NCBI GenBank assembly: GCA_017484065.1
Contig: JAFUTX010000013.1
Coordinates: forward strand, 85,137-117,136
Reading direction: 5' to 3'
From: Bacilli bacterium
Lineage (GTDB): Bacteria; Bacillota_I; Bacilli_A; RF39; UBA660
DNA: 32,000 bases
Shown here: positions 10,661 to 32,000 of the stretch, one piece after another
Layout of the letters: each line of letters opens with the position of its first letter
How positions within the stretch are numbered: position 1 is the stretch's first letter
Notes under the pieces: generated by a model
The model's input: only the letters and a program-made list of their open reading frames with translations
Databases searched by the model: none
What the model was told of the DNA's origin: nothing
Made by a program: the position numbers and the translations under genes

Positions 10661-11566
10661 TTAAATTTTTAATACTTGCCCTATACTTAGATTATTGCTA
10701 GTTAAGTTATTCTTTCTTTTAATATTATCCACAGTAGTATTATACTTTTTAGCTATTAAGTATAAAGAATCACCTTTTTTTACCGTATAAGTTATAGTTG
10801 TACTACTATTATTACTTGGTATTTTTAACTCTTGACCGATACTTAAAATATTACTCTTTAAATTATTAGTATTAATAATATCATTAACACTTACATTATA
10901 TTTTTGACTTATACTATATAAGCTATCTCCTCTTTTTACTACATAAGTTACAGTATTAGTTGGACTAGATATATCAGGAATATAATCTTCACCAAAACAT
11001 TCTTCTACTTCCATAGTTACTCCACTTGGAATACGAATCTTTAGCTGTTGACCTATATTTAAAATATTACTAGTTAAAGAATTATCTTGAATTAATGTAT
11101 CAACACTTATATTGTTATTCTTAGCTATTGAGTACAGTGAATCTCCTTTTTTTACTGTATAATTAGAATACTGTGGTAATACTATTTCTTCTTCTGGTGT
11201 ATACATCTCTGGTATTCTTAATACTTGTCCTATGCTTAAATTAGTACTTTTTAAATAATTTAAATCAATTATTTTTTGTACTGTTGTACCATACTTGCTT
11301 GCTATCTTATATAGACTATCACCACTTTTTACTGTATACATAAACATTGTATCTGGATTAGTAGCAGATTTAGTGGGTATAGTAAGTACTCTTCCTACTT
11401 GTAAATTACTACCATAAATATTATTAAGTTCAGCAAGTTCTGTAACTGATACACCAAACTGATTACTTATCCCATATAAAGTATCGCCACTTTTTACAGT
11501 ATATGTTTGATTTATTTTTATCACCTCTCTATCAAACAATATGCAAAAAAGATAAGATATAACCAA
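10661..11566 (-). CDS. Protein with five LysM peptidoglycan-binding repeats
   Basis: Five copies of Y-[TV]-V-K-x-G-D-[ST]-L-Y-x-I-[AS]...L-x-[IV]-G-Q-x-L-[KRT]-I-P. The start codon is uncertain; the first ~15 aa of the track ORF look non-native. Confidence 0.8.
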   Translation of the reverse strand: MVISYLFCILFDREVIKINQTYTVKSGDTLYGISNQFGVSVTELAELNNIYGSNLQVGRVLTIPTKSATNPDTMFMYTVKSGDSLYKIASKYGTTVQKIIDLNYLKSTNLSIGQVLRIPEMYTPEEEIVLPQYSNYTVKKGDSLYSIAKNNNISVDTLIQDNSLTSNILNIGQQLKIRIPSGVTMEVEECFGEDYIPDISSPTNTVTYVVKRGDSLYSISQKYNVSVNDIINTNNLKSNILSIGQELKIPSNNSSTTITYTVKKGDSLYLIAKKYNTTVDNIKRKNNLTSNNLSIGQVLKI

Positions 11567-17901: not shown

Positions 17902-18817
17902 TAATTTTATCGACATCGTTTAATATTGATGCCTTTACTGATTTATCTTTTAATAAGTTTAACGATGACTTTCTATAGCCTATGTGATTAACACTATTAC
18001 CAGAGTGATATATTTTATTTCTATCAAGAATAAAATATCTATCATTAAATGTATCATCATAATATATAGTTAAGTTATTATAATCTTTATTATATTTATC
18101 TATATCTAATTTAGTTAGTTTAGTATTCTGACCTGTAATTAGTTTAACATCACATTTTAAGTTTTTTATCATATCTAAAATAGTTTTATCAGTATATCTA
18201 TCTATTATTATCAACTCATTTTTAGTCATACTAAAAATATCTATGATTAAGGAATGAGCATCATATATCTTACCATCAAAATATATTTCATTTATTTCTT
18301 TATTTTCTTCTAGCTTCTTTAATGATTTTTCTAACAAATTTATTCTAATAGTATTCTTTCTAATGTTATTATGGTCTTCTAGTATTAAGTTAGTAATATT
18401 TTGATGTTCTAGCAAGTTATTTGAAATATAATGTCTCATTGCTACAAATGCATCCATTATCTTGATACTAACTTCTTCTGCAACTTCAGTATTTAATATA
18501 GTAGCAAGCATAGCAACACCTTGTTCAGTAAAGGCATATGGTAAATATTTAATATGTTGTCCCCTTTTATTTCCATTAATGTTTAAGGTTTCAAATTGAA
18601 ACCTTAAACATTCTTTACATTCTTCTTCTGTTAATTGAAACATAAATCTTTCTGGAAATCTTTTAATATGTCTTTTAACTGCGAGATTTATAGATTTTGT
18701 TCCGTTCTTACATTTATAAAGATAGGCTAAGTCACTATCTAACATAACTTGTTTGCCTCTTATTTCATAAATCATATCTTCAATCTTTAATTCTTCATTT
18801 AATGCTAATTCATTCAT
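17891..18817 (-). CDS. ORF6N (KilA-N-related) domain protein with a conserved C-terminal domain
   Basis: IYEIRGKQVMLDSDLAYLYKCKNGTKSINLAVKRHIKRFPERFMFQLTEEE...LPYAFTEQGVAMLATIL is a typical ORF6N domain. The C-terminal ...NDRYFILDRNKIYHSGNSVNHIG is typical of full-length members. Confidence 0.75.
   Translation of the reverse strand: MNELALNEELKIEDMIYEIRGKQVMLDSDLAYLYKCKNGTKSINLAVKRHIKRFPERFMFQLTEEECKECLRFQFETLNINGNKRGQHIKYLPYAFTEQGVAMLATILNTEVAEEVSIKIMDAFVAMRHYISNNLLEHQNITNLILEDHNNIRKNTIRINLLEKSLKKLEENKEINEIYFDGKIYDAHSLIIDIFSMTKNELIIIDRYTDKTILDMIKNLKCDVKLITGQNTKLTKLDIDKYNKDYNNLTIYYDDTFNDRYFILDRNKIYHSGNSVNHIGYRKSSLNLLKDKSVKASILNDVDKIIMH
18580..18610. repeat. 31-nt perfect palindrome inside the ORF6N coding sequence
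   Basis: TGTTTAAGGTTTCAA-A-TTGAAACCTTAAACA. The arms were verified as exact reverse complements. It encodes CLRFQFETLNI. Confidence 0.9.
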
Positions 18818-18835
18818 ACCAAAACCTCCGAATAA

Positions 18836-19396
18836 TTATTTATTATTATCATGATTTAATACCATGTTATTTATATTTTTTTGCTCTATTAAATTATTAC
18901 TTATATAATGCCTCATTGCTACAAATGCATCCATTATTTTGATACTAATTTGAGTAGCAACACTAGTTTTGAGAATTGTTGCAAGCATGGCAACTCATTG
19001 CTCAGTAAATACTCTTGGATTATTATATTTACCACCTATTCTATCTATTTCTCTTTTTTGGTCAAAAATTTTGACCAAAAGACTTTTGGATTCATTATCA
19101 GTTAATTTCCAAGAAAATTGTTCAGTAAATACTCTTGGATTACTCCTTGACATATTACTATAATTTGTGGTCAATTTTTTTGACCGCAAATCGTTTAGTT
19201 CATTATCAGTTAATCTCCAAGAAAATCTTTCTGGAAATTTATCTGAATTGTTTTTTACTGCTTGATTAATAACTTTCGTTCCATTCTTACATTTATAAAG
19301 GAAAGCTAAGTCACTATCTAACATAACTTGTTTACCTCTTATTTCGAAAATCATATCTTCAATCTTTAATTCTTCATTTAATGCTAATTCATTAAT
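18836..19396 (-). pseudogene. Decayed partial tandem copy of the ORF6N gene (N-terminal two thirds only)
   Basis: About 65 nt spanning the RBS and first codons are near-identical to the intact gene, but ATG has become ATT at 19394-19396. There is an in-frame TGA at 18995-18997 where the intact copy has Gly (TEQ*VAMLATIL versus TEQGVAMLATIL). The FSW[RK]LTDNE...NPRVFTEQ unit is duplicated internally. The C-terminal domain is missing. Confidence 0.75.
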
Positions 19397-19464
19397 ACCA
19401 AAACCTCCGATTACTCTAAGTAATAATAATATATCATATCGAACATGTGTACGTCAATAATAAT

Positions 19465-24388: not shown

Positions 24389-26350
24389 CTATTTATTATT
24401 AATGTAATTAATAAGTACATCTACTACTTTTTCTACTCCTATACTGTCCACATTAAGAGATATATCATAATTACTTCCCCAATCTATTCCTGTATAGTTT
24501 TCATAGTATTTTTTTCTTTCTTTATTAGTCTTATTAATAACTCTTTTAGCTTTATCTTTATCTAAATGGTAATATTTAATACCTCTATTAATCTTATCTT
24601 CTAAATTAGAATATAAAAATACTTTAATTACATTTTTGTTATCTTTTAAAATATAATCACTACATCTACCTACTATTACACAAGGTTGTTTAGCTAAATT
24701 TTCTATTACCTTAGTGTTAGCTTCAAATAATAAGTTATCATTTTGATAAAAGTTTTTCTTTTCTTCAATTTCTTTGACATATTCAGGAGCAAAACCACTC
24801 TTTTTAGCATCTAACATTATTATTTCTTTATCATATATTGGAATATTTAATTTACTAGCTAATAACTTACCAACATATCTGCCACCAGAGCCGTATTCAC
24901 GAGCAATAGTGATAACGTAATTAGTTAGAGGTTGACCACTTACTTCTTTTGAATTTAATTCTATCTTTTCTTCTTTTACATTTAATTTCTTATATTCTGA
25001 TGAAAAAATAAAACATACTACTATAAAACATATAGTATCTGCAGCTATACCTGCATATAAAGCTCCATATAAACCATAAATATGACATAATACTATTGAT
25101 AATGGAATAAATAAAATTATTTGCCTAGTAAATGATACTAAAGTTGATTTAACAACATTACCTAGTGATTGAATTACGATTGAGCATGTCATTTCAAATG
25201 CATTCAAGAAACAAACTCCTAAGAATATTCTAGAACAGGCAATTCCAAATTTTAAAAATAAATCATAATTAACATCACTTTTACTAATAAATAGATTAAT
25301 TAGTACTTGTGGACATATTTGTAATATTAAATTAAAGATTATTCCAATAGTAAAATTAATTATTAATACTAGTTTTAATGTTTCCTTAACTCTTTTTAAA
25401 TTCCTAGCTCCATAATTATATCCAATAATAGGTTGAGCTCCTATAGATATACCTAATACAGCAGATACATAAAAACTATTTAATTTACTTATAACACCAT
25501 AAACTGATAATGGAATATCACTACCATAAATACTACTAGCACCATATTTAGTCATTAAATTATTCATAACAATAAATAAAGCCATTACTGTCATTTGAGT
25601 AATAAAACTTGATAAACCTAAACCTACTGATTTTAATACTTCTTTAGTTAATTTATAATCACTTTTATTTATTTTAACAGATTTAAATTTTCTTAAATAT
25701 AGTATAGCTATAATAAATGATATTATTTGACCAATAATAGTAGCATATGCTCCACCCGCTACACCCCAATTAAATTTAAAAATAAATATAGGGTCTAGTA
25801 CTAAATTAATTACTGCTCCTATACATAGGAAAAACATCGCATATCTAGGTGAACCATCACTACGAATAATACTAGATAAACCAGTATAAACAATCATAAA
25901 TGGGGCACCAAGTAGAATAATTCTTCCATAAGTAATAGCACTATCATAAACATTTGGGGTAGAACCAAATAGTTTTATTAATGCAGGTAATAACAACTCA
26001 CCTATAATGGCAACAACTATAGCACTAATAAATAATAAAGTGATTGATGAAGCTACACTCTTACTAGCCTCTTCTTTTTTCCCTTCACCAAGTCTTAAAC
26101 TTAAATTAGCTGCTGAACCATTGCCAATTAAACCTGCTACTGCATTACAAATAATTACAATCGGAAATATAACATTAGTAGCAGCATTACCAATAGTTCC
26201 TACTCCTTTACCAATAAAAATTTGATCTACTATATTATATACTGAATTAATTAACATACTTATTATACAAGGAATAGAAAATGCTAATAATAATTTACTT
26301 ATTTTTTCTTTTCCTAAATCTAACTTTTTCAAAAACATCACTCCTAACAA
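24389..26350 (-). CDS. MATE-family efflux transporter fused to a C-terminal cytidylate-kinase-like (Cytidylate_kin2-type) domain
   Basis: The first ~450 aa are polytopic and MATE-like (SIPCIISMLINSVYNIVDQIFIG...). The last ~190 aa start ITIAREYGSGGRYVGKLLASKLNIPIYDKEII and end ...RKKYYENYTGIDWG, the signature of the stand-alone cytidylate-kinase-like family. The start codon is ambiguous (26350, 26338 or 26332). Confidence 0.65.
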   Translation of the reverse strand: MLGVMFLKKLDLGKEKISKLLLAFSIPCIISMLINSVYNIVDQIFIGKGVGTIGNAATNVIFPIVIICNAVAGLIGNGSAANLSLRLGEGKKEEASKSVASSITLLFISAIVVAIIGELLLPALIKLFGSTPNVYDSAITYGRIILLGAPFMIVYTGLSSIIRSDGSPRYAMFFLCIGAVINLVLDPIFIFKFNWGVAGGAYATIIGQIISFIIAILYLRKFKSVKINKSDYKLTKEVLKSVGLGLSSFITQMTVMALFIVMNNLMTKYGASSIYGSDIPLSVYGVISKLNSFYVSAVLGISIGAQPIIGYNYGARNLKRVKETLKLVLIINFTIGIIFNLILQICPQVLINLFISKSDVNYDLFLKFGIACSRIFLGVCFLNAFEMTCSIVIQSLGNVVKSTLVSFTRQIILFIPLSIVLCHIYGLYGALYAGIAADTICFIVVCFIFSSEYKKLNVKEEKIELNSKEVSGQPLTNYVITIAREYGSGGRYVGKLLASKLNIPIYDKEIIMLDAKKSGFAPEYVKEIEEKKNFYQNDNLLFEANTKVIENLAKQPCVIVGRCSDYILKDNKNVIKVFLYSNLEDKINRGIKYYHLDKDKAKRVINKTNKERKKYYENYTGIDWGSNYDISLNVDSIGVEKVVDVLINYINNK

Positions 26351-28031: not shown

Positions 28032-28340
28032 CTATTTAATAGTTTTTTTTATAACTGCACTTAATAACACTTCATTAATCAAAATTTTTTTCTTATATAA
28101 TAAGTAATTATTATTTTGATAATTATTACTTTCTATGATTTCTAAGCCATCTAATAACAGATAAGAGATATTTTTTTCTTTAATTCTACTTATATCATTG
28201 CTTAAATATAAAAAAATCTTTTTATCTAGATAACATGATACTACCTTTTTATCATAATATATTAAAATTAGCTTACTAGGATACATTTTTTTTAAAAATT
28301 TATATCTATTTTCTAAACTCATCAAACCACTTATTTTCAA
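28032..28340 (-). CDS. Small ORF with weak MutS-domain-I-like N-terminus, downstream of the DGR RT
   Basis: LENRYKFLKKMYPSKLILIYYDKKVVSCYLDKKIFLYL parallels the MutS N-terminus (Y..lK..yPd.lLlfr.GdFYE.f..DA). It is also similar to the 31629..32000 ORF (IKEKNISYLLLDGLEII versus LEEKKIHYQIILNDEEI). It overlaps the RT stop by 35 nt. Confidence 0.4.
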   Translation of the reverse strand: MKISGLMSLENRYKFLKKMYPSKLILIYYDKKVVSCYLDKKIFLYLSNDISRIKEKNISYLLLDGLEIIESNNYQNNNYLLYKKKILINEVLLSAVIKKTIK

Positions 28341-28682
28341 CTAATCTTTTAATATAAGTACTATTACCATATCTATAATTATTAATGTAAGACGCCATAC
28401 TACAAAAAGCTTGTTCAAAACTTATATAGTGATGTTTATATAACCAAGCGTTTTCTTTAATTTTCTTTTTTATATTTTTTTTATTCTTTTGACAAATATT
28501 TATAATAGTCTTTTTATTTATAACTCTAAATCTATATCCTAAAAATACAAATCCTTCTTTATTAGTTACTATCATAGTTTTTTTAGGATTTAATACTAAC
28601 ATATACTTTGTTTCTAATTCATATTTAATGTAATTATAGGCATCAATTAATTTTTGCTTATCAGGGTGAATTAAAATAAAGT
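28306..28682 (-). CDS. DGR reverse transcriptase, exon 2 (second and third bases of the split Asp codon through the stop)
   Basis: After removing the intron, G (30597) plus AC (28682-28681) gives GAC (Asp). The protein then reads YIRYMDD-FILIHPDKQKLIDAYNYIKYELETKYMLVLNPKKTMIV..GFVFLGYRF, i.e. RT motifs 5-7. The first 8 codons of the track ORF (28683-28707, GTG start) lie in intron domain VI and are not coding. Confidence 0.8.
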
Positions 28683-28685
28683 ATC

Positions 28686-28754
28686 GAGTAGAAATATGTG
28701 TTACCACATATAACCCTCACAGATCCGTACGTGCAGCTTTCCCGCATACGGCTC
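28686..28754 (-). ncRNA. Group II intron catalytic domains V and VI
   Basis: Domain V matches the near-universal GAGCCGUAU...ACGUACGG consensus. In domain VI, AUAUGUG-GUAA-CACAUAU forms the upper stem and GAGGG/CU(A)CUC the lower stem, with the branch A bulged. Confidence 0.85.
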
Positions 28755-28786
28755 TTCATAACATAGTATTTATTCTTCAAATTGCT

Positions 28787-30082
28787 TTATATTGAATATA
28801 TTTTAATTTTAATATGTGGCTTTGGAATATTATAGTATTTTGTCATTTGTAAAAATTCTTCCCAATTATAACTCTTTCTTTGACTTCTTCTATTTATCCA
28901 TTTAAATAGTATATGTAAACTTTCGTAATAGAATTTTCTAATCATATGATAATTGTCGCTGATACCATAATAGTTATAGTAACCAATTAGTTTCTTTCTA
29001 TATGTAATCATTATCGTTTCTAATGTTTCATTTCTATTCTCTTTACACCAATCGTTAAATTCTGTTAGTTTCTTTCTAAATTTCTTACTTGACGTTTTAC
29101 GCTTTACACGAAACTTTCCATTTTTACTTTTACTACAATAATGAGTAAATCCCAAGAATTCAAATGTATCTGGTTTATTACTTTTACAATTCTGTATTGC
29201 AAATCTTCCAAAGCTTAACAATCTAGTTTTATCTTCTGCCAGCTCTAAATCCGCCTGTTTTAATCTATTTGGTAAAAGTTTTTCATAAAATATCTTTGCC
29301 ACACTTTCATATTGGAAGCAACAAATAAAGTCATCTGCATAATTTATTATACTCATGAAACCTCCATATTTAACTTTAACAAAATCTTCGAACCACTTTA
29401 TTAAAGTATAATACATATAAATATTTGCTAGTACTGGACTTAATATAGAACCTTGTGGTGTTCCATATTCTCCAATATAAAATTTATTATTTTCTAATAT
29501 ACCTGCCCTTAAGAATTTTCTTACAAGTTTTAATATATTTTTATCATTAATATGTAGTTCTAAACATTTTATTAGTTTGTCATGATTGATATTATCAAAG
29601 AACCCTTTTATATCTGCTTCGACTACAAAATTTGTAAAGTGTCCTTCAATATCAATTACTATTTGCTTTAATGCTTGATGACAATTTTTATTAGGTCTAA
29701 AACCAAACATATTGTCTGGAAATTTAGGTTCATATATTGCTTCAATTAGTTTCTTTAGTGCTAATTGAACTATTTTGTCTTCAAAATTCGCAATAGCTAA
29801 ACCTCTAACTTTTCCATTAGATTTTGGTATATCAACTTTTCGTGCCGGGCTTGGTTTGTAGCTTTTATTCTTTAGTTTTGTAACTAAAATATTGATATTC
29901 TCCTCAAGATTTAAACTATATTCTTCTTTTGTAATACTATCTATTCCAACTGCTTTATTACCATCTAATTCTTTAAAACATTCATTTAATAGTTCTTTAT
30001 TAATTAAGTGGTATATCGAGCTAAATATTTCTTTTGGTCTTTCTTTTGCAATTTGGTTTATTCTTGCTATTTTACTTGTCAT
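28787..30082 (-). CDS. Group II intron-encoded protein (reverse transcriptase plus maturase/X domain, no obvious endonuclease domain)
   Basis: It has ...GNKAVGIDSITKEEY..., PKSNGKVRGLAI, ADIKGFFDNINHDKL, TPQGSILSPVLANIYM, NYADDFICCF and FLGFTHY, plus a C-terminal maturase-like region (YYNYYGISDNY). These are typical IEP motifs. Confidence 0.9.
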   Translation of the reverse strand: MTSKIARINQIAKERPKEIFSSIYHLINKELLNECFKELDGNKAVGIDSITKEEYSLNLEENINILVTKLKNKSYKPSPARKVDIPKSNGKVRGLAIANFEDKIVQLALKKLIEAIYEPKFPDNMFGFRPNKNCHQALKQIVIDIEGHFTNFVVEADIKGFFDNINHDKLIKCLELHINDKNILKLVRKFLRAGILENNKFYIGEYGTPQGSILSPVLANIYMYYTLIKWFEDFVKVKYGGFMSIINYADDFICCFQYESVAKIFYEKLLPNRLKQADLELAEDKTRLLSFGRFAIQNCKSNKPDTFEFLGFTHYCSKSKNGKFRVKRKTSSKKFRKKLTEFNDWCKENRNETLETIMITYRKKLIGYYNYYGISDNYHMIRKFYYESLHILFKWINRRSQRKSYNWEEFLQMTKYYNIPKPHIKIKIYSI

Positions 30083-30596
30083 TATTTCTTCACTCCTTGT
30101 ATAGTGATAATGTTTGCAATAACTAAGAGCTATGTTATGTGAACCCCTTCCCTACATTGCATTTATTGATGCAATATCAAAGGTACTATGAGTTCATCTG
30201 ACTACCTATATTTCATTTGATATATTTATTTATTATTTTATCATACTCTGTACCAATTGGCTCACTGCCCACTTTTGGAATAAGAGAAAATATAGGTTCT
30301 CACTGTTCATCGAATAAACATTGTATATCATGATTAGGTCTTTCAGACTCCGCAAGAGTTTAATAATACTACCCATATTGTATTATTAAATGTAGTATTC
30401 CACTTGGATGACAGCATCTACACTCTTGAAATATAACGATACATTTCGAAGCTCAATACTAACCCTAATACCTAACTGTCTACGCTTAATTATAAATGTT
30501 ACCATTTATAACCCAAGACTCGCTACTAGATGTGGCGGGTACCACTTTCTAGGTAGGATTTCCACCTACTAATTTATTCGACCTACACAGTCGCAC

Positions 30597-31305
30597 CATC
30601 CATATATCTAATATAATATGGAATGTTAAGCTTATGAACAATATCATAATCTAGTTTATATAAATAAAAAATAGCTAAAAATTGGCTTGTCATATTACCT
30701 ATGGGTAAGCCTTTGCCTTTTTCATATAAAGGTAATTCTACATTATAGTTTTTCATTATTCTTTTAATATTATTATTGATATACTCTTGATTAGTAGTAT
30801 CAATTATTGTATTTAAAACGTGGGCTTCTTCAGTTTTTAATTTTTCACTTAACAACGATTTTAATACTTTGTGATCAATTGAATAAAAATACTTAGATAT
30901 ATCTAATTTTAAAATATAGAATTTATCAAATTTTTTGCACTTTTCTAAATATTTTTTTATTTTCAATCTTCCATAATCAGTCCCCATATTCTTCCTGGTA
31001 GCTATATTTCTATCTATTAAATATTTTTCTAACTTTTCTATTAGAATCTTATTAGCTATATAATGATTAATAATTTTATCTTTGATATTTAAAGACATTA
31101 TTACCCGACATTTTGGTTCAAATACAATAAATATATTATATAAACAACGATAACTTGAATTAAAATTTTTTAAAGCATTGCAAACATCAATTAAATTTTG
31201 CATATGATATTTTTCAAATTGATATAATTTACGTTTATTTTTAGTGTTTGGCATTATAGCATTTTCATAAATTCTTATAACATCACTAAGTAACACATTA
31301 TTCAT
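30597..31305 (-). CDS. DGR reverse transcriptase, exon 1 (Met1 through the first Asp of YMDD plus the first base of the second Asp codon)
   Basis: VFEPKCRVIMSLNIKDKIINHYI, NIATRKNMGTDYG, YILKLDISKYFYSIDHKVL and GLPIGNMTSQFLAIFYL (the [LIV]GxxxSQ signature that distinguishes DGR RTs), then YIRYMD. The track ORF continues ...GATV* only because it reads into the intron. Confidence 0.8.
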
Positions 31306-31651
31306 TATTTTTTATCCATTTATATATCATTTTTTTTATTTCTAACAAATAATTACATTTGTTTTCACATTGCTTGTTAGATATATATTTTTTATTATGT
31401 AAATATTCTAAATAAAAATCTAACATAGATACTTGAGTTAAAACTATCTTTTGGTAAGTTTCCATCTCCTTACCCTTATACATATTAGCTAAATATAAAA
31501 ATTCTAATAATTCATTTGATCTTTCAAATAATTGTTCTTTTATATGTCTTTCTTTATTAGGTATATTAACAACTAGTTCATCTAAAGAAAAAATAAATTT
31601 TTTTACAGATACTGCAATATAAAACTCTTTATTCATTAGCAACAACCTCAA
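31298..31651 (-). CDS. avd: Avd-like four-helix-bundle protein (DGR accessory variability determinant / 23S-IVS protein family)
   Basis: It is 117 aa and predicted all-helical. The pattern ...NIPNKERHIKEQLFERSNELLEFLYLAN...VSMLDFYLEYLHNKKYISNKQ...LLEIKKMIYKWIKN matches the family pattern (P-K-x-E-[RK] ... [AI]N ... K-x-[IL]-S-x-K-Q ... W-x-K). An 8-nt overlap with the RT start is the usual avd-RT coupling. Confidence 0.7.
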   Translation of the reverse strand: MRLLLMNKEFYIAVSVKKFIFSLDELVVNIPNKERHIKEQLFERSNELLEFLYLANMYKGKEMETYQKIVLTQVSMLDFYLEYLHNKKYISNKQCENKCNYLLEIKKMIYKWIKNNE

Positions 31652-32000
31652 TGTAATTAACTATTTTATCAATTTTTTCTTCATTTAAGTTTTCAATTTT
31701 CTTTATTAATATATCTATGTTTCTATTTTTGTCTCTTGCAATTAAAGCATCATTTAATGTGTTATTATAGTGATTAATTCCCTTTTTAAAATTAATTTCT
31801 TCATCATTAAGAATAATTTGATAATGTATCTTCTTTTCTTCTAAAATAGTTAAAACTTTATTTTGTGCTGATATTGGAAATCCAACCCTACGATTTATTA
31901 TTCTATAACCAAATAAATACCATAAAATAACAGCATCATCATCAAATACTTGATAGAATTTACCAACTTTTCTAATGACTAAAATATTTGCTTTTTTCAT
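31629..32000 (-). CDS. Stand-alone MutS mismatch-binding-domain-I-like protein (DGR accessory, MSL-type)
   Basis: NILVIRKVGKFYQVFDDDAVILWYLFGYRI...VGFPISAQNKVLTILEEKKIHYQII parallels MutS domain I (lLffrmGDFYElFfeDA...l.itLT....pmaGvP.ha...yl.kLv..G.kvaIceQ). The ATG occupies the last three bases of the window, so an upstream extension cannot be excluded. It overlaps avd by 23 nt. Confidence 0.6.
   Translation of the reverse strand: MKKANILVIRKVGKFYQVFDDDAVILWYLFGYRIINRRVGFPISAQNKVLTILEEKKIHYQIILNDEEINFKKGINHYNNTLNDALIARDKNRNIDILIKKIENLNEEKIDKIVNYIEVVANE

Follow-up and report, generated by a model that had tools for sequence, protein, structure and literature searches.

The window analysed here is a 32,000-nt stretch of contig JAFUTX010000013.1, which belongs to the metagenome-assembled genome (MAG) of an uncultured 'Bacilli bacterium' with 26 % G+C. 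Near its end, the minus strand carries a reverse transcriptase (RT) gene that resembles those of diversity-generating retroelements (DGRs), and a group II intron with an RT/maturase gene of its own splits this gene inside the codons of the catalytic YMDD box. The parts are listed from 5´ to 3´ on the minus strand.

30597–31305 (−): exon 1 of the DGR-type RT, 236 codons plus nucleotide 1 of the second Asp codon of YMDD; contains LPIGNMTSQ, read from the sequence
28683–30596 (−): group II intron of 1914 nt, 5´ GUGCG, 3´ CUACUCGAU
30338–30562 (−): ribozyme core of domains I–IV (Rfam RF02005, 139.9 bits, E 4.3e-40, model positions 1–225 of 225)
28787–30082 (−): intron-encoded RT/maturase (intron-encoded protein, IEP) of 431 aa with a YADD box (TIGR04416, 329.2 bits versus a cutoff of 300; PF00078)
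28683–28756 (−): domains V and VI (Rfam RF00029, 53.3 bits); domain V starts at 28754 (GAGCCGUAUG...), branch-point A at 28689
28306–28682 (−): exon 2 of the RT; AC finishes the Asp codon and is followed by FILIH..., the thumb domain and the stop codon

The last base of exon 1 is 30597 (...TAT ATG GAT G), directly followed by the intron opening GTGCG at 30596–30592 and then by GTGCGACTGTGTAG, and the intron ends with CTACTCGAT at 28683. The conserved group II termini (5´ GUGYG, 3´ AY) are therefore present as GUGCG and as ...CGAU ending at 28683. Both Rfam models are matched over their full length and above their gathering scores (49 for RF02005, group-II-D1D4-6, and 40 for RF00029). Domain V forms a 34-nt helix with the AGC triad, and domain VI contains the bulged A: in the RF00029 alignment, A28689 is unpaired and aligns with the consensus branch point, and the last intron base aligns at 28683. 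Compensatory changes were found at 9 pairs in domains V and VI when seven related intron copies were compared. The IEP open reading frame (ORF) is located in domain IV, between the D1–D4 and D5 Rfam matches. In every testable respect, namely the termini, domains I–IV, domains V and VI, the pairing of exon-binding sites (EBS) with intron-binding sites (IBS) and the domain IV ORF, the inserted element is a group II intron.

Removal of 28683–30596 joins G and AC to an Asp codon and leaves 1086 nt in frame, which encode 361 aa with ...YIRYMDD/FILIH at the join (the slash marks the exon boundary) and ...YYIRYMDDFILIHPDK... around it. The intron is inserted after nucleotide 1 of the codon for the second Asp of YMDD, and the predicted ligated-exon junction is TATATGGATG/ACTTTATT (in its wider form ...AGATATATGGATG/ACTTTATTTTAATT). 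The conceptually spliced protein matches PF00078 and, when used as a query against 5.8 billion proteins, yielded 3223 matches at E ≤ 1e-10. The best 120 of the 3223 are uninterrupted proteins of about 350–380 aa that cover 94–100 % of the query, and the best uninterrupted match shares 61 % identity with it. In an alignment with 14 uninterrupted homologues (48–61 % identity), RYMDDF is invariant and no gap occurs at the join. Exon 2 is open for about 125 codons in sequence of 21 % G+C and aligns to the homologues up to the C-terminus. The unspliced ORF (31305–30583) ends ...YIRYMDGATV-stop, which gives a 240-aa product with neither the second catalytic Asp nor the thumb. Because this product stops 4 codons into the intron, the DGR RT could be made only from spliced mRNA.

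These results agree with the original prediction, made from the letters of the window, on every point of anatomy. It had joined the ORF fragments 30583–31305 and 28306–28707 into one gene, with the split YMDD restored by G + AC = Asp, and had anticipated a gapless join to intron-less RTs. It had also described a 1914-nt intron starting with GUGCG, domains V and VI with a bulged A at 28689 that Rfam group II models should recover, an intact 431-aa RT/maturase with YADD, and a sense orientation that makes the DGR RT dependent on spliced mRNA. Its expectation that automatic annotation would call the RT a pseudogene was wrong, as the public record lists the two pieces as hypothetical proteins (MBR1413506.1 and MBR1413504.1).

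The insertion site can be explained by base pairing between the intron and exon 1, for which the following elements were located.

30604–30608 (−): IBS2 (GAUAU), positions 2 and 3 of the Arg codon and the complete Tyr codon; exon positions −12 to −8
30597–30602 (−): IBS1 (UGGAUG), the six bases that end the exon: UG of the Met codon, GAU (first Asp) and G of the second Asp
30438–30442 (−): EBS2 (GUAUC), pairs with IBS2, 27 nt upstream of EBS1
30405–30410 (−): EBS1 (CAUCCA), located in the Rfam-aligned EBS1 loop, pairs with IBS1

Both pairings are perfect (6 bp for EBS1/IBS1 and 5 bp for EBS2/IBS2), with EBS1 at the position first proposed for it. EBS1 is CGUCCA in most relatives, which pairs with UGGAUG as does CAUCCA in the window. 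The assignments are supported by compensatory changes at the same alignment positions in two sets of related introns:

L099: exon UUGGU-G-UAUCCG; EBS1 CGGAUA; EBS2 GCCAA
L111–L120 (IEP 65 % identical, in a Bro-N-like gene): exon GAAUU-U-GGUAUG; EBS1 CAUACC; EBS2 AAUUC

The full target reads aGA-UAU-AUG-GAU-G^A (the caret marks the insertion point), which encodes Arg-Tyr-Met-Asp-Asp. A search of relatives for the empty site, which had been suggested together with the intron, found AGATATATGGATGAT in the uninterrupted homologues L006–L013. In L014 the empty site is CGTTATATGGATGAT, which is one base off at IBS2 and has the CGT-Arg variant that also occurs in the intron-bearing loci L018 and L097. 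An ectopic intron copy (L100) keeps the IBS1 match and nothing else of the target. The sister introns L111–L120 (IEP P0189) are inserted inside the Bro-N-like coding sequence, with the exon junction ...GAATTTTGGTATG^CAAGAGAAC. The stretch that encodes the YADD box of the window IEP itself (TATGCAGATGACTTTATTT; 29310–29341, minus strand) has GATGACTTTATTT in common with the homing site; it mismatches at IBS2 and at −5 and −6 of IBS1, and these differences would protect it from self-targeting.

At least 10 other, divergent DGR RT genes carry related introns at the phosphodiester that is used in the window. A scan of the GTDB species-representative genomes for relatives of the IEP recovered five close loci (L017–L021; IEP 68–89 % identical), and in all five a DGR-type RT ORF ends ...TAYATGGATG directly before GTGCGACTGTGTAGGTCGAA. 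Further copies were found on two JGI metagenome contigs (L097 and L098) and on ENA/Logan contigs with a 76 %-identical IEP (L101–L110). The junctions have the common form ...TAYATGGATG^GTGCGACTGTGTAGG ... CTACTCGAT^AY in L017–L021, L097, L098, L101 and L104. The L018 contig stops inside the intron, and the second Asp codon is restored in all loci that hold the 3´ junction. Exon 2 is open in the intron-bearing loci (L017, L019, L020 and L098, and for about 96 aa in L101) except L021. Ten more clusters of short exon-1 fragments end RYMDGATV.

The divergence of the introns does not follow that of their hosts. In most pairs the host RTs are 31–55 % identical in amino acid sequence, while their introns are 81–99 % identical in nucleotide sequence. 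The introns of the window and L017 share 89 % of their nucleotides and the hosts 35–38 % of their amino acids; for L019 and L021 the values are 99 % and 33–36 %, respectively. One IEP, identical in protein sequence, was found in two different host RT genes among the ENA/Logan contigs. This discordance points to repeated horizontal homing rather than co-inheritance, and it lends indirect support to mobility of the intron. The intron is a repeat in metagenomes, where assemblers may collapse copies or join exons chimerically. Comparison of the L106 contig with L101 and L104 shows that its exon 1 and exon 2, on the two sides of the common intron, come from different host RT alleles; the cause would be either recombination within the intron or chimeric assembly, and the contig looks chimeric. 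No close intron copy was found in the annotated phage collection or in the annotated plasmid collection, the latter giving only 66–70 % matches to parts of the IEP, and IMG/VR contained no exact match to the 20-mer at the intron 5´ end.

The IEP offers some guidance on the intron class. Profile searches detected no HNH/endonuclease (En) domain in it, and its match to PF08388 is weak. In a PDB sequence search with the IEP, the E-values of LtrA (IIA) and of the E.r. IIC maturase were similar, which does not decide the class. Class IIC introns have no EBS2 and are inserted after terminator stem-loops or attC sites. The window intron shows EBS2/IBS2 pairing with covariation and is inserted inside coding sequence with no terminator, so class IIC was rejected. 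An IEP that lacks the En domain points to class D, E or F or to a minority of class CL. En-minus group II introns retrohome via replication-fork priming (PMC4424553), and the same route would be implied for the window intron.

Two exon-1 fragments, on contigs L121 and L122, end ...DGATRF and ...DGATRS instead of ...DGATV. They are followed by another ribozyme (L121:551–1272 and L122:162–743; Rfam RF02004, D1D4-5, 156 and 111 bits), which has different 5´ and domain V sequences and is inserted after ...GATG of the same codon. The L121 intron is 722 nt long and ORF-less; its host carries YQDD (TAC CAA GAT G^AT), and exon 2 continues D-FLLFHPSKKYL. The EBS1 candidates match the exons in both cases (CAUCUU/AAGAUG in L121 and CGUCCA/UGGAUG in L122). 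The close relatives of this D1D4-5 ribozyme in IMG/VR are located in unrelated genes, so the presence of a second lineage at YxDD looks like independent retargeting. RYQDD replaces RYMDD in a sub-family of DGR-like RTs with IGNxxSQ (the L121 exon, P0276, P0291, P0304, P0314 and P0320–P0330). In four viral contigs of IMG/VR (L124, L125, L127 and L128), D1D4-5-type relatives interrupt a small membrane-protein gene at ...GVINL(L/M)EGYGNDN^, which looks like another conserved-motif homing site.

The identification of the host gene as a DGR-type RT, already part of the original prediction, is supported by its sequence motif, its neighbours and the cassettes of its homologues. The motif (I/V/L)GxxxSQ in RT domain 4 is a criterion for DGR RTs (PMC3521204); it is present in exon 1 as LPIGNMTSQ, and its residues are invariant in the alignment with the homologues. 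Three further genes accompany the RT, the first two of them immediately upstream.

31298–31651 (−): Avd-like accessory gene, 117 aa, overlapping the RT start; NF033474 34 bits (cutoff 80) and PF22296 27 bits (cutoff 40), below both cutoffs
31629–32000 (−): MutS-domain-I-like (MSL) accessory gene, 123 aa; PF01624 E 0.0017, below threshold
28032–28340 (−): small ORF, 102 aa, 3´ of the RT, conserved in this cassette family

Wu et al. 2018 (PMC5758913) describe MSL as an accessory gene of their DGR Architecture D. The profile matches of the Avd-like and MSL genes are sub-threshold, yet both are syntenic with the same genes of confirmed DGRs: the Avd-like gene corresponds in position to bAvd matches in L008 and L101, and MSL homologues occur in L006, L008, L011, L014, L017 and L101, with a PF01624 match in L101. 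On the long contigs L011 and L014 (52–54 % identity), with which the window cassette is syntenic throughout, the cassette has the order target gene with variable repeat (VR), template repeat (TR), MSL, avd, RT and small ORF. The mismatches between TR and VR fall on TR adenines in 15 of 15 cases in L011 and 14 of 16 in L014, both uninterrupted. The same holds for intron-bearing hosts (12/13 in L017, 11/11 in L018, 19/20 in L020 and 12/13 in L021), and adenine-specific TR/VR pairs were also found in the intron-bearing L101 and L098. Weakly conserved counterparts of the small ORF, with N-x-Y-x-F-x-K-x-x-Y near the N-terminus, follow the RT in L006, L008, L011 and L014 too; the ORF may represent an accessory gene, not described before, of this family of DGR cassettes.

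No candidate for a TR/VR pair of the window cassette itself emerged when the last 8 kb and the complete window were searched for repeats. The MSL start codon marks the end of the window, and every contig that could be retrieved through the IEP, DHH and MSL proteins stops 96–258 nt further upstream; a look-up of the window's Avd protein returned no record. The extra upstream sequence (L001:1–207 and L016:1–258) contains no TR over its 258 nt and is AT-rich with one hairpin, GTAGTAACCAAA...TTTGGTTACTAC, followed by a T-run. Assembly breaks 96–258 nt upstream of MSL would be expected if a TR/VR repeat or hypervariable region were located just beyond.

The genes that flank the cassette are chromosomal housekeeping genes, including those for a DHH phosphoesterase, mscL, rimM and trmD. 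A 653-aa ORF at 24389–26350 (−) encodes a MatE efflux domain fused to a cytidylate-kinase-like domain (Pfam, contig gene table). Other repeats of the window, none of them related to the intron, are located at 10664–11339, 18366–19413 and 2475–2540/3622–3687; they comprise a 127-nt unit in four copies, two families of 167–215-nt repeats and a 66-nt pair of 94 % identity that carries the inverted repeat CTCAAGAATT...AATCTTGAG.

The best-supported explanation is that the intron behaves as selfish group II introns ordinarily do, at a target that is unusual and recurrent. Very probably, the window holds a mobile intron of a lineage that homes to the (R)YMD/D-coding DNA of DGR RTs and that has retrohomed here into the sense strand. 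The intron RNA would recognise 5´-GAUAU-A-UGGAUG^A through EBS2 and EBS1 pairing. This 13-nt target would be fixed by the catalytic motif in combination with AT-rich codon usage, and with the target held constant, most low-GC bacterial DGR RT genes would offer an empty site. The host would be unable to mutate the homing site away, so the catalytic codons would provide a conserved landing site for spread. The intron would persist via precise excision, in which maturase-assisted splicing would restore the RT ORF exactly and could leave the DGR active. Splicing calls for the maturase function of the IEP, not for its polymerase activity.

Several points weigh against this explanation. Splicing is predicted from the sequence, and the intron class is narrowed only to D, E, F or CL. 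Chimeric assembly could inflate some of the intron identities, though not the junctions or the cross-project comparisons. The exon 2 of L021 is truncated, which suggests that some invaded DGRs may be decaying. With the TR/VR and the target gene beyond the available contigs, the DGR copy of the window could be incomplete.

The insertion may instead be a dead end that inactivated the RT, with splicing lost and the DGR in decay, the intact exons reflecting a recent insertion. The truncated exon 2 of L021, the lack of a visible TR/VR for the window cassette and the annotation of the pieces as separate hypothetical proteins are in line with it. It is nonetheless unlikely, as the ribozyme hallmarks and the IEP ORF are all intact and exon 2 remains open, over about 125 codons at 21 % G+C in the window and also in L017, L019, L020, L098 and, for about 96 aa, L101.

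A bolder possibility, which we consider rather doubtful, is that the YxDD codons are a dedicated group II intron niche, where at least two ribozyme lineages have converged on one phosphodiester, and that intron and DGR are functionally coupled. Maturase-dependent splicing could, for example, serve as a conditional switch by which costly hypermutation is kept in check. Otherwise, the En-less intron might draw on DGR cDNA, on the Avd machinery or on the mobility of phages and other elements that carry DGRs in order to spread.

A regulatory gate, an idea already raised with the original prediction, in which the intron has been co-opted and is kept for the benefit of the host so that DGR mutagenesis is on only with an active maturase, appears improbable. 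The RT cannot be made without splicing, every sampled allele of the species has the intron, and the best uninterrupted protein is only 61 % identical. Nothing in these observations, however, separates a gate from ordinary selfish persistence, and no regulatory element or conditional feature was found at the locus. Between-sample polymorphism was uninformative as a test of selection, since the copies are 99.6–100 % identical. The same intron moves among unrelated DGR RT genes and lands at non-RT sites (L100 and L099), which is the behaviour of a parasite. As one copy of a widely homing lineage, the window intron is more readily regarded as a selfish element than as a regulator.

That a single old insertion was inherited vertically, with intron and host diverging together, is very improbable. 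The position is identical in all hosts, as this would require, but the introns differ by 1–19 % in nucleotide sequence, far less than the 45–69 % amino acid divergence of the host RTs and uncorrelated with it; one IEP protein sequence is identical in two hosts; and many close uninterrupted homologues keep the empty site. A chimeric join that placed an unrelated intron contig between RT fragments has a negligible chance of being correct, even though the source is a MAG and chimeric exon combinations occur (L106), because the junction is codon-exact and the locus recurs with identical structure and junctions at 99.6–100 % identity in independent assemblies of several samples produced by different assemblers (MEGAHIT, Logan unitigs, NCBI MAG).

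The mobile-intron explanation can be compared with known systems. The relaxase gene ltrB of conjugative elements in Lactococcus lactis contains the group II intron Ll.LtrB, whose LtrA protein has an En domain; PMC4424553 uses this intron as its standard example. The window intron likewise bears an IEP, is inserted in sense orientation in a conserved gene that belongs to a mobile or accessory element and is targeted by EBS1 and EBS2, and the function of its host gene is predicted to depend on maturase-assisted splicing. Unlike Ll.LtrB, its IEP lacks En, the host gene is itself an RT with the catalytic YMDD as the insertion site, and a single lineage has at least 10 divergent genes as its hosts. 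Polymerase active-site motifs can harbour inteins or group I introns. Group II introns also reside in housekeeping genes such as recA of Geobacillus kaustophilus, the groEL operon of Azotobacter and cyanobacterial genes (PMC4424553). As in these cases, a selfish element occupies the most conserved codons, where drift of the target is precluded and an imprecise loss destroys the gene; here the target family is the DGR RT. In archaea, according to the summary of Dai & Zimmerly 2003 in PMC4424553, other group II introns and their ORFs serve as homing sites for group II introns of Methanosarcina, and twintrons occur as well. The two systems share a retroelement inside a retroelement and site-specific homing into the sequence of a related RT-encoding element, which provides a perpetual homing site; the Methanosarcina hosts are selfish introns with no cellular function, whereas the host here is a domesticated, beneficial DGR whose RT needs splicing. 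The cassette resembles DGR Architecture D (PMC5758913) in its MSL-like gene, Avd-like gene and RT with the SQ motif, and differs from it in the intron-split RT gene, the extra conserved small ORF after the RT and a TR/VR that was not recovered.

Full-text searches and the principal surveys of DGRs (Wu 2018, Schillinger 2012, Roux 2021, myRT 2021) contained no report of introns in DGR RT genes, and neither an RT review (2021) nor a 2025 paper on group II introns in phages mentions them. The earlier remark that no described case of an intron in a DGR RT active site was known agrees with the literature covered, and, as far as we found, the active site of DGR RTs as a recurrent target of group II introns is previously undescribed.

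Pipelines and annotation that find DGRs need an intact RT ORF, so such cassettes will be missed or called broken. The target GAUAU-A-UGGAUG^A would explain the host range of the intron, which covers AT-rich Bacillota-type genomes, and would predict which DGRs are susceptible. The locus is a naturally occurring system whose DGR mutagenesis should require RNA splicing. More generally, it points to a parasite–host relation between two families of retroelements, in which a selfish intron lineage, and apparently a second, independent one, would home to the active-site codons of the domesticated DGR RT.

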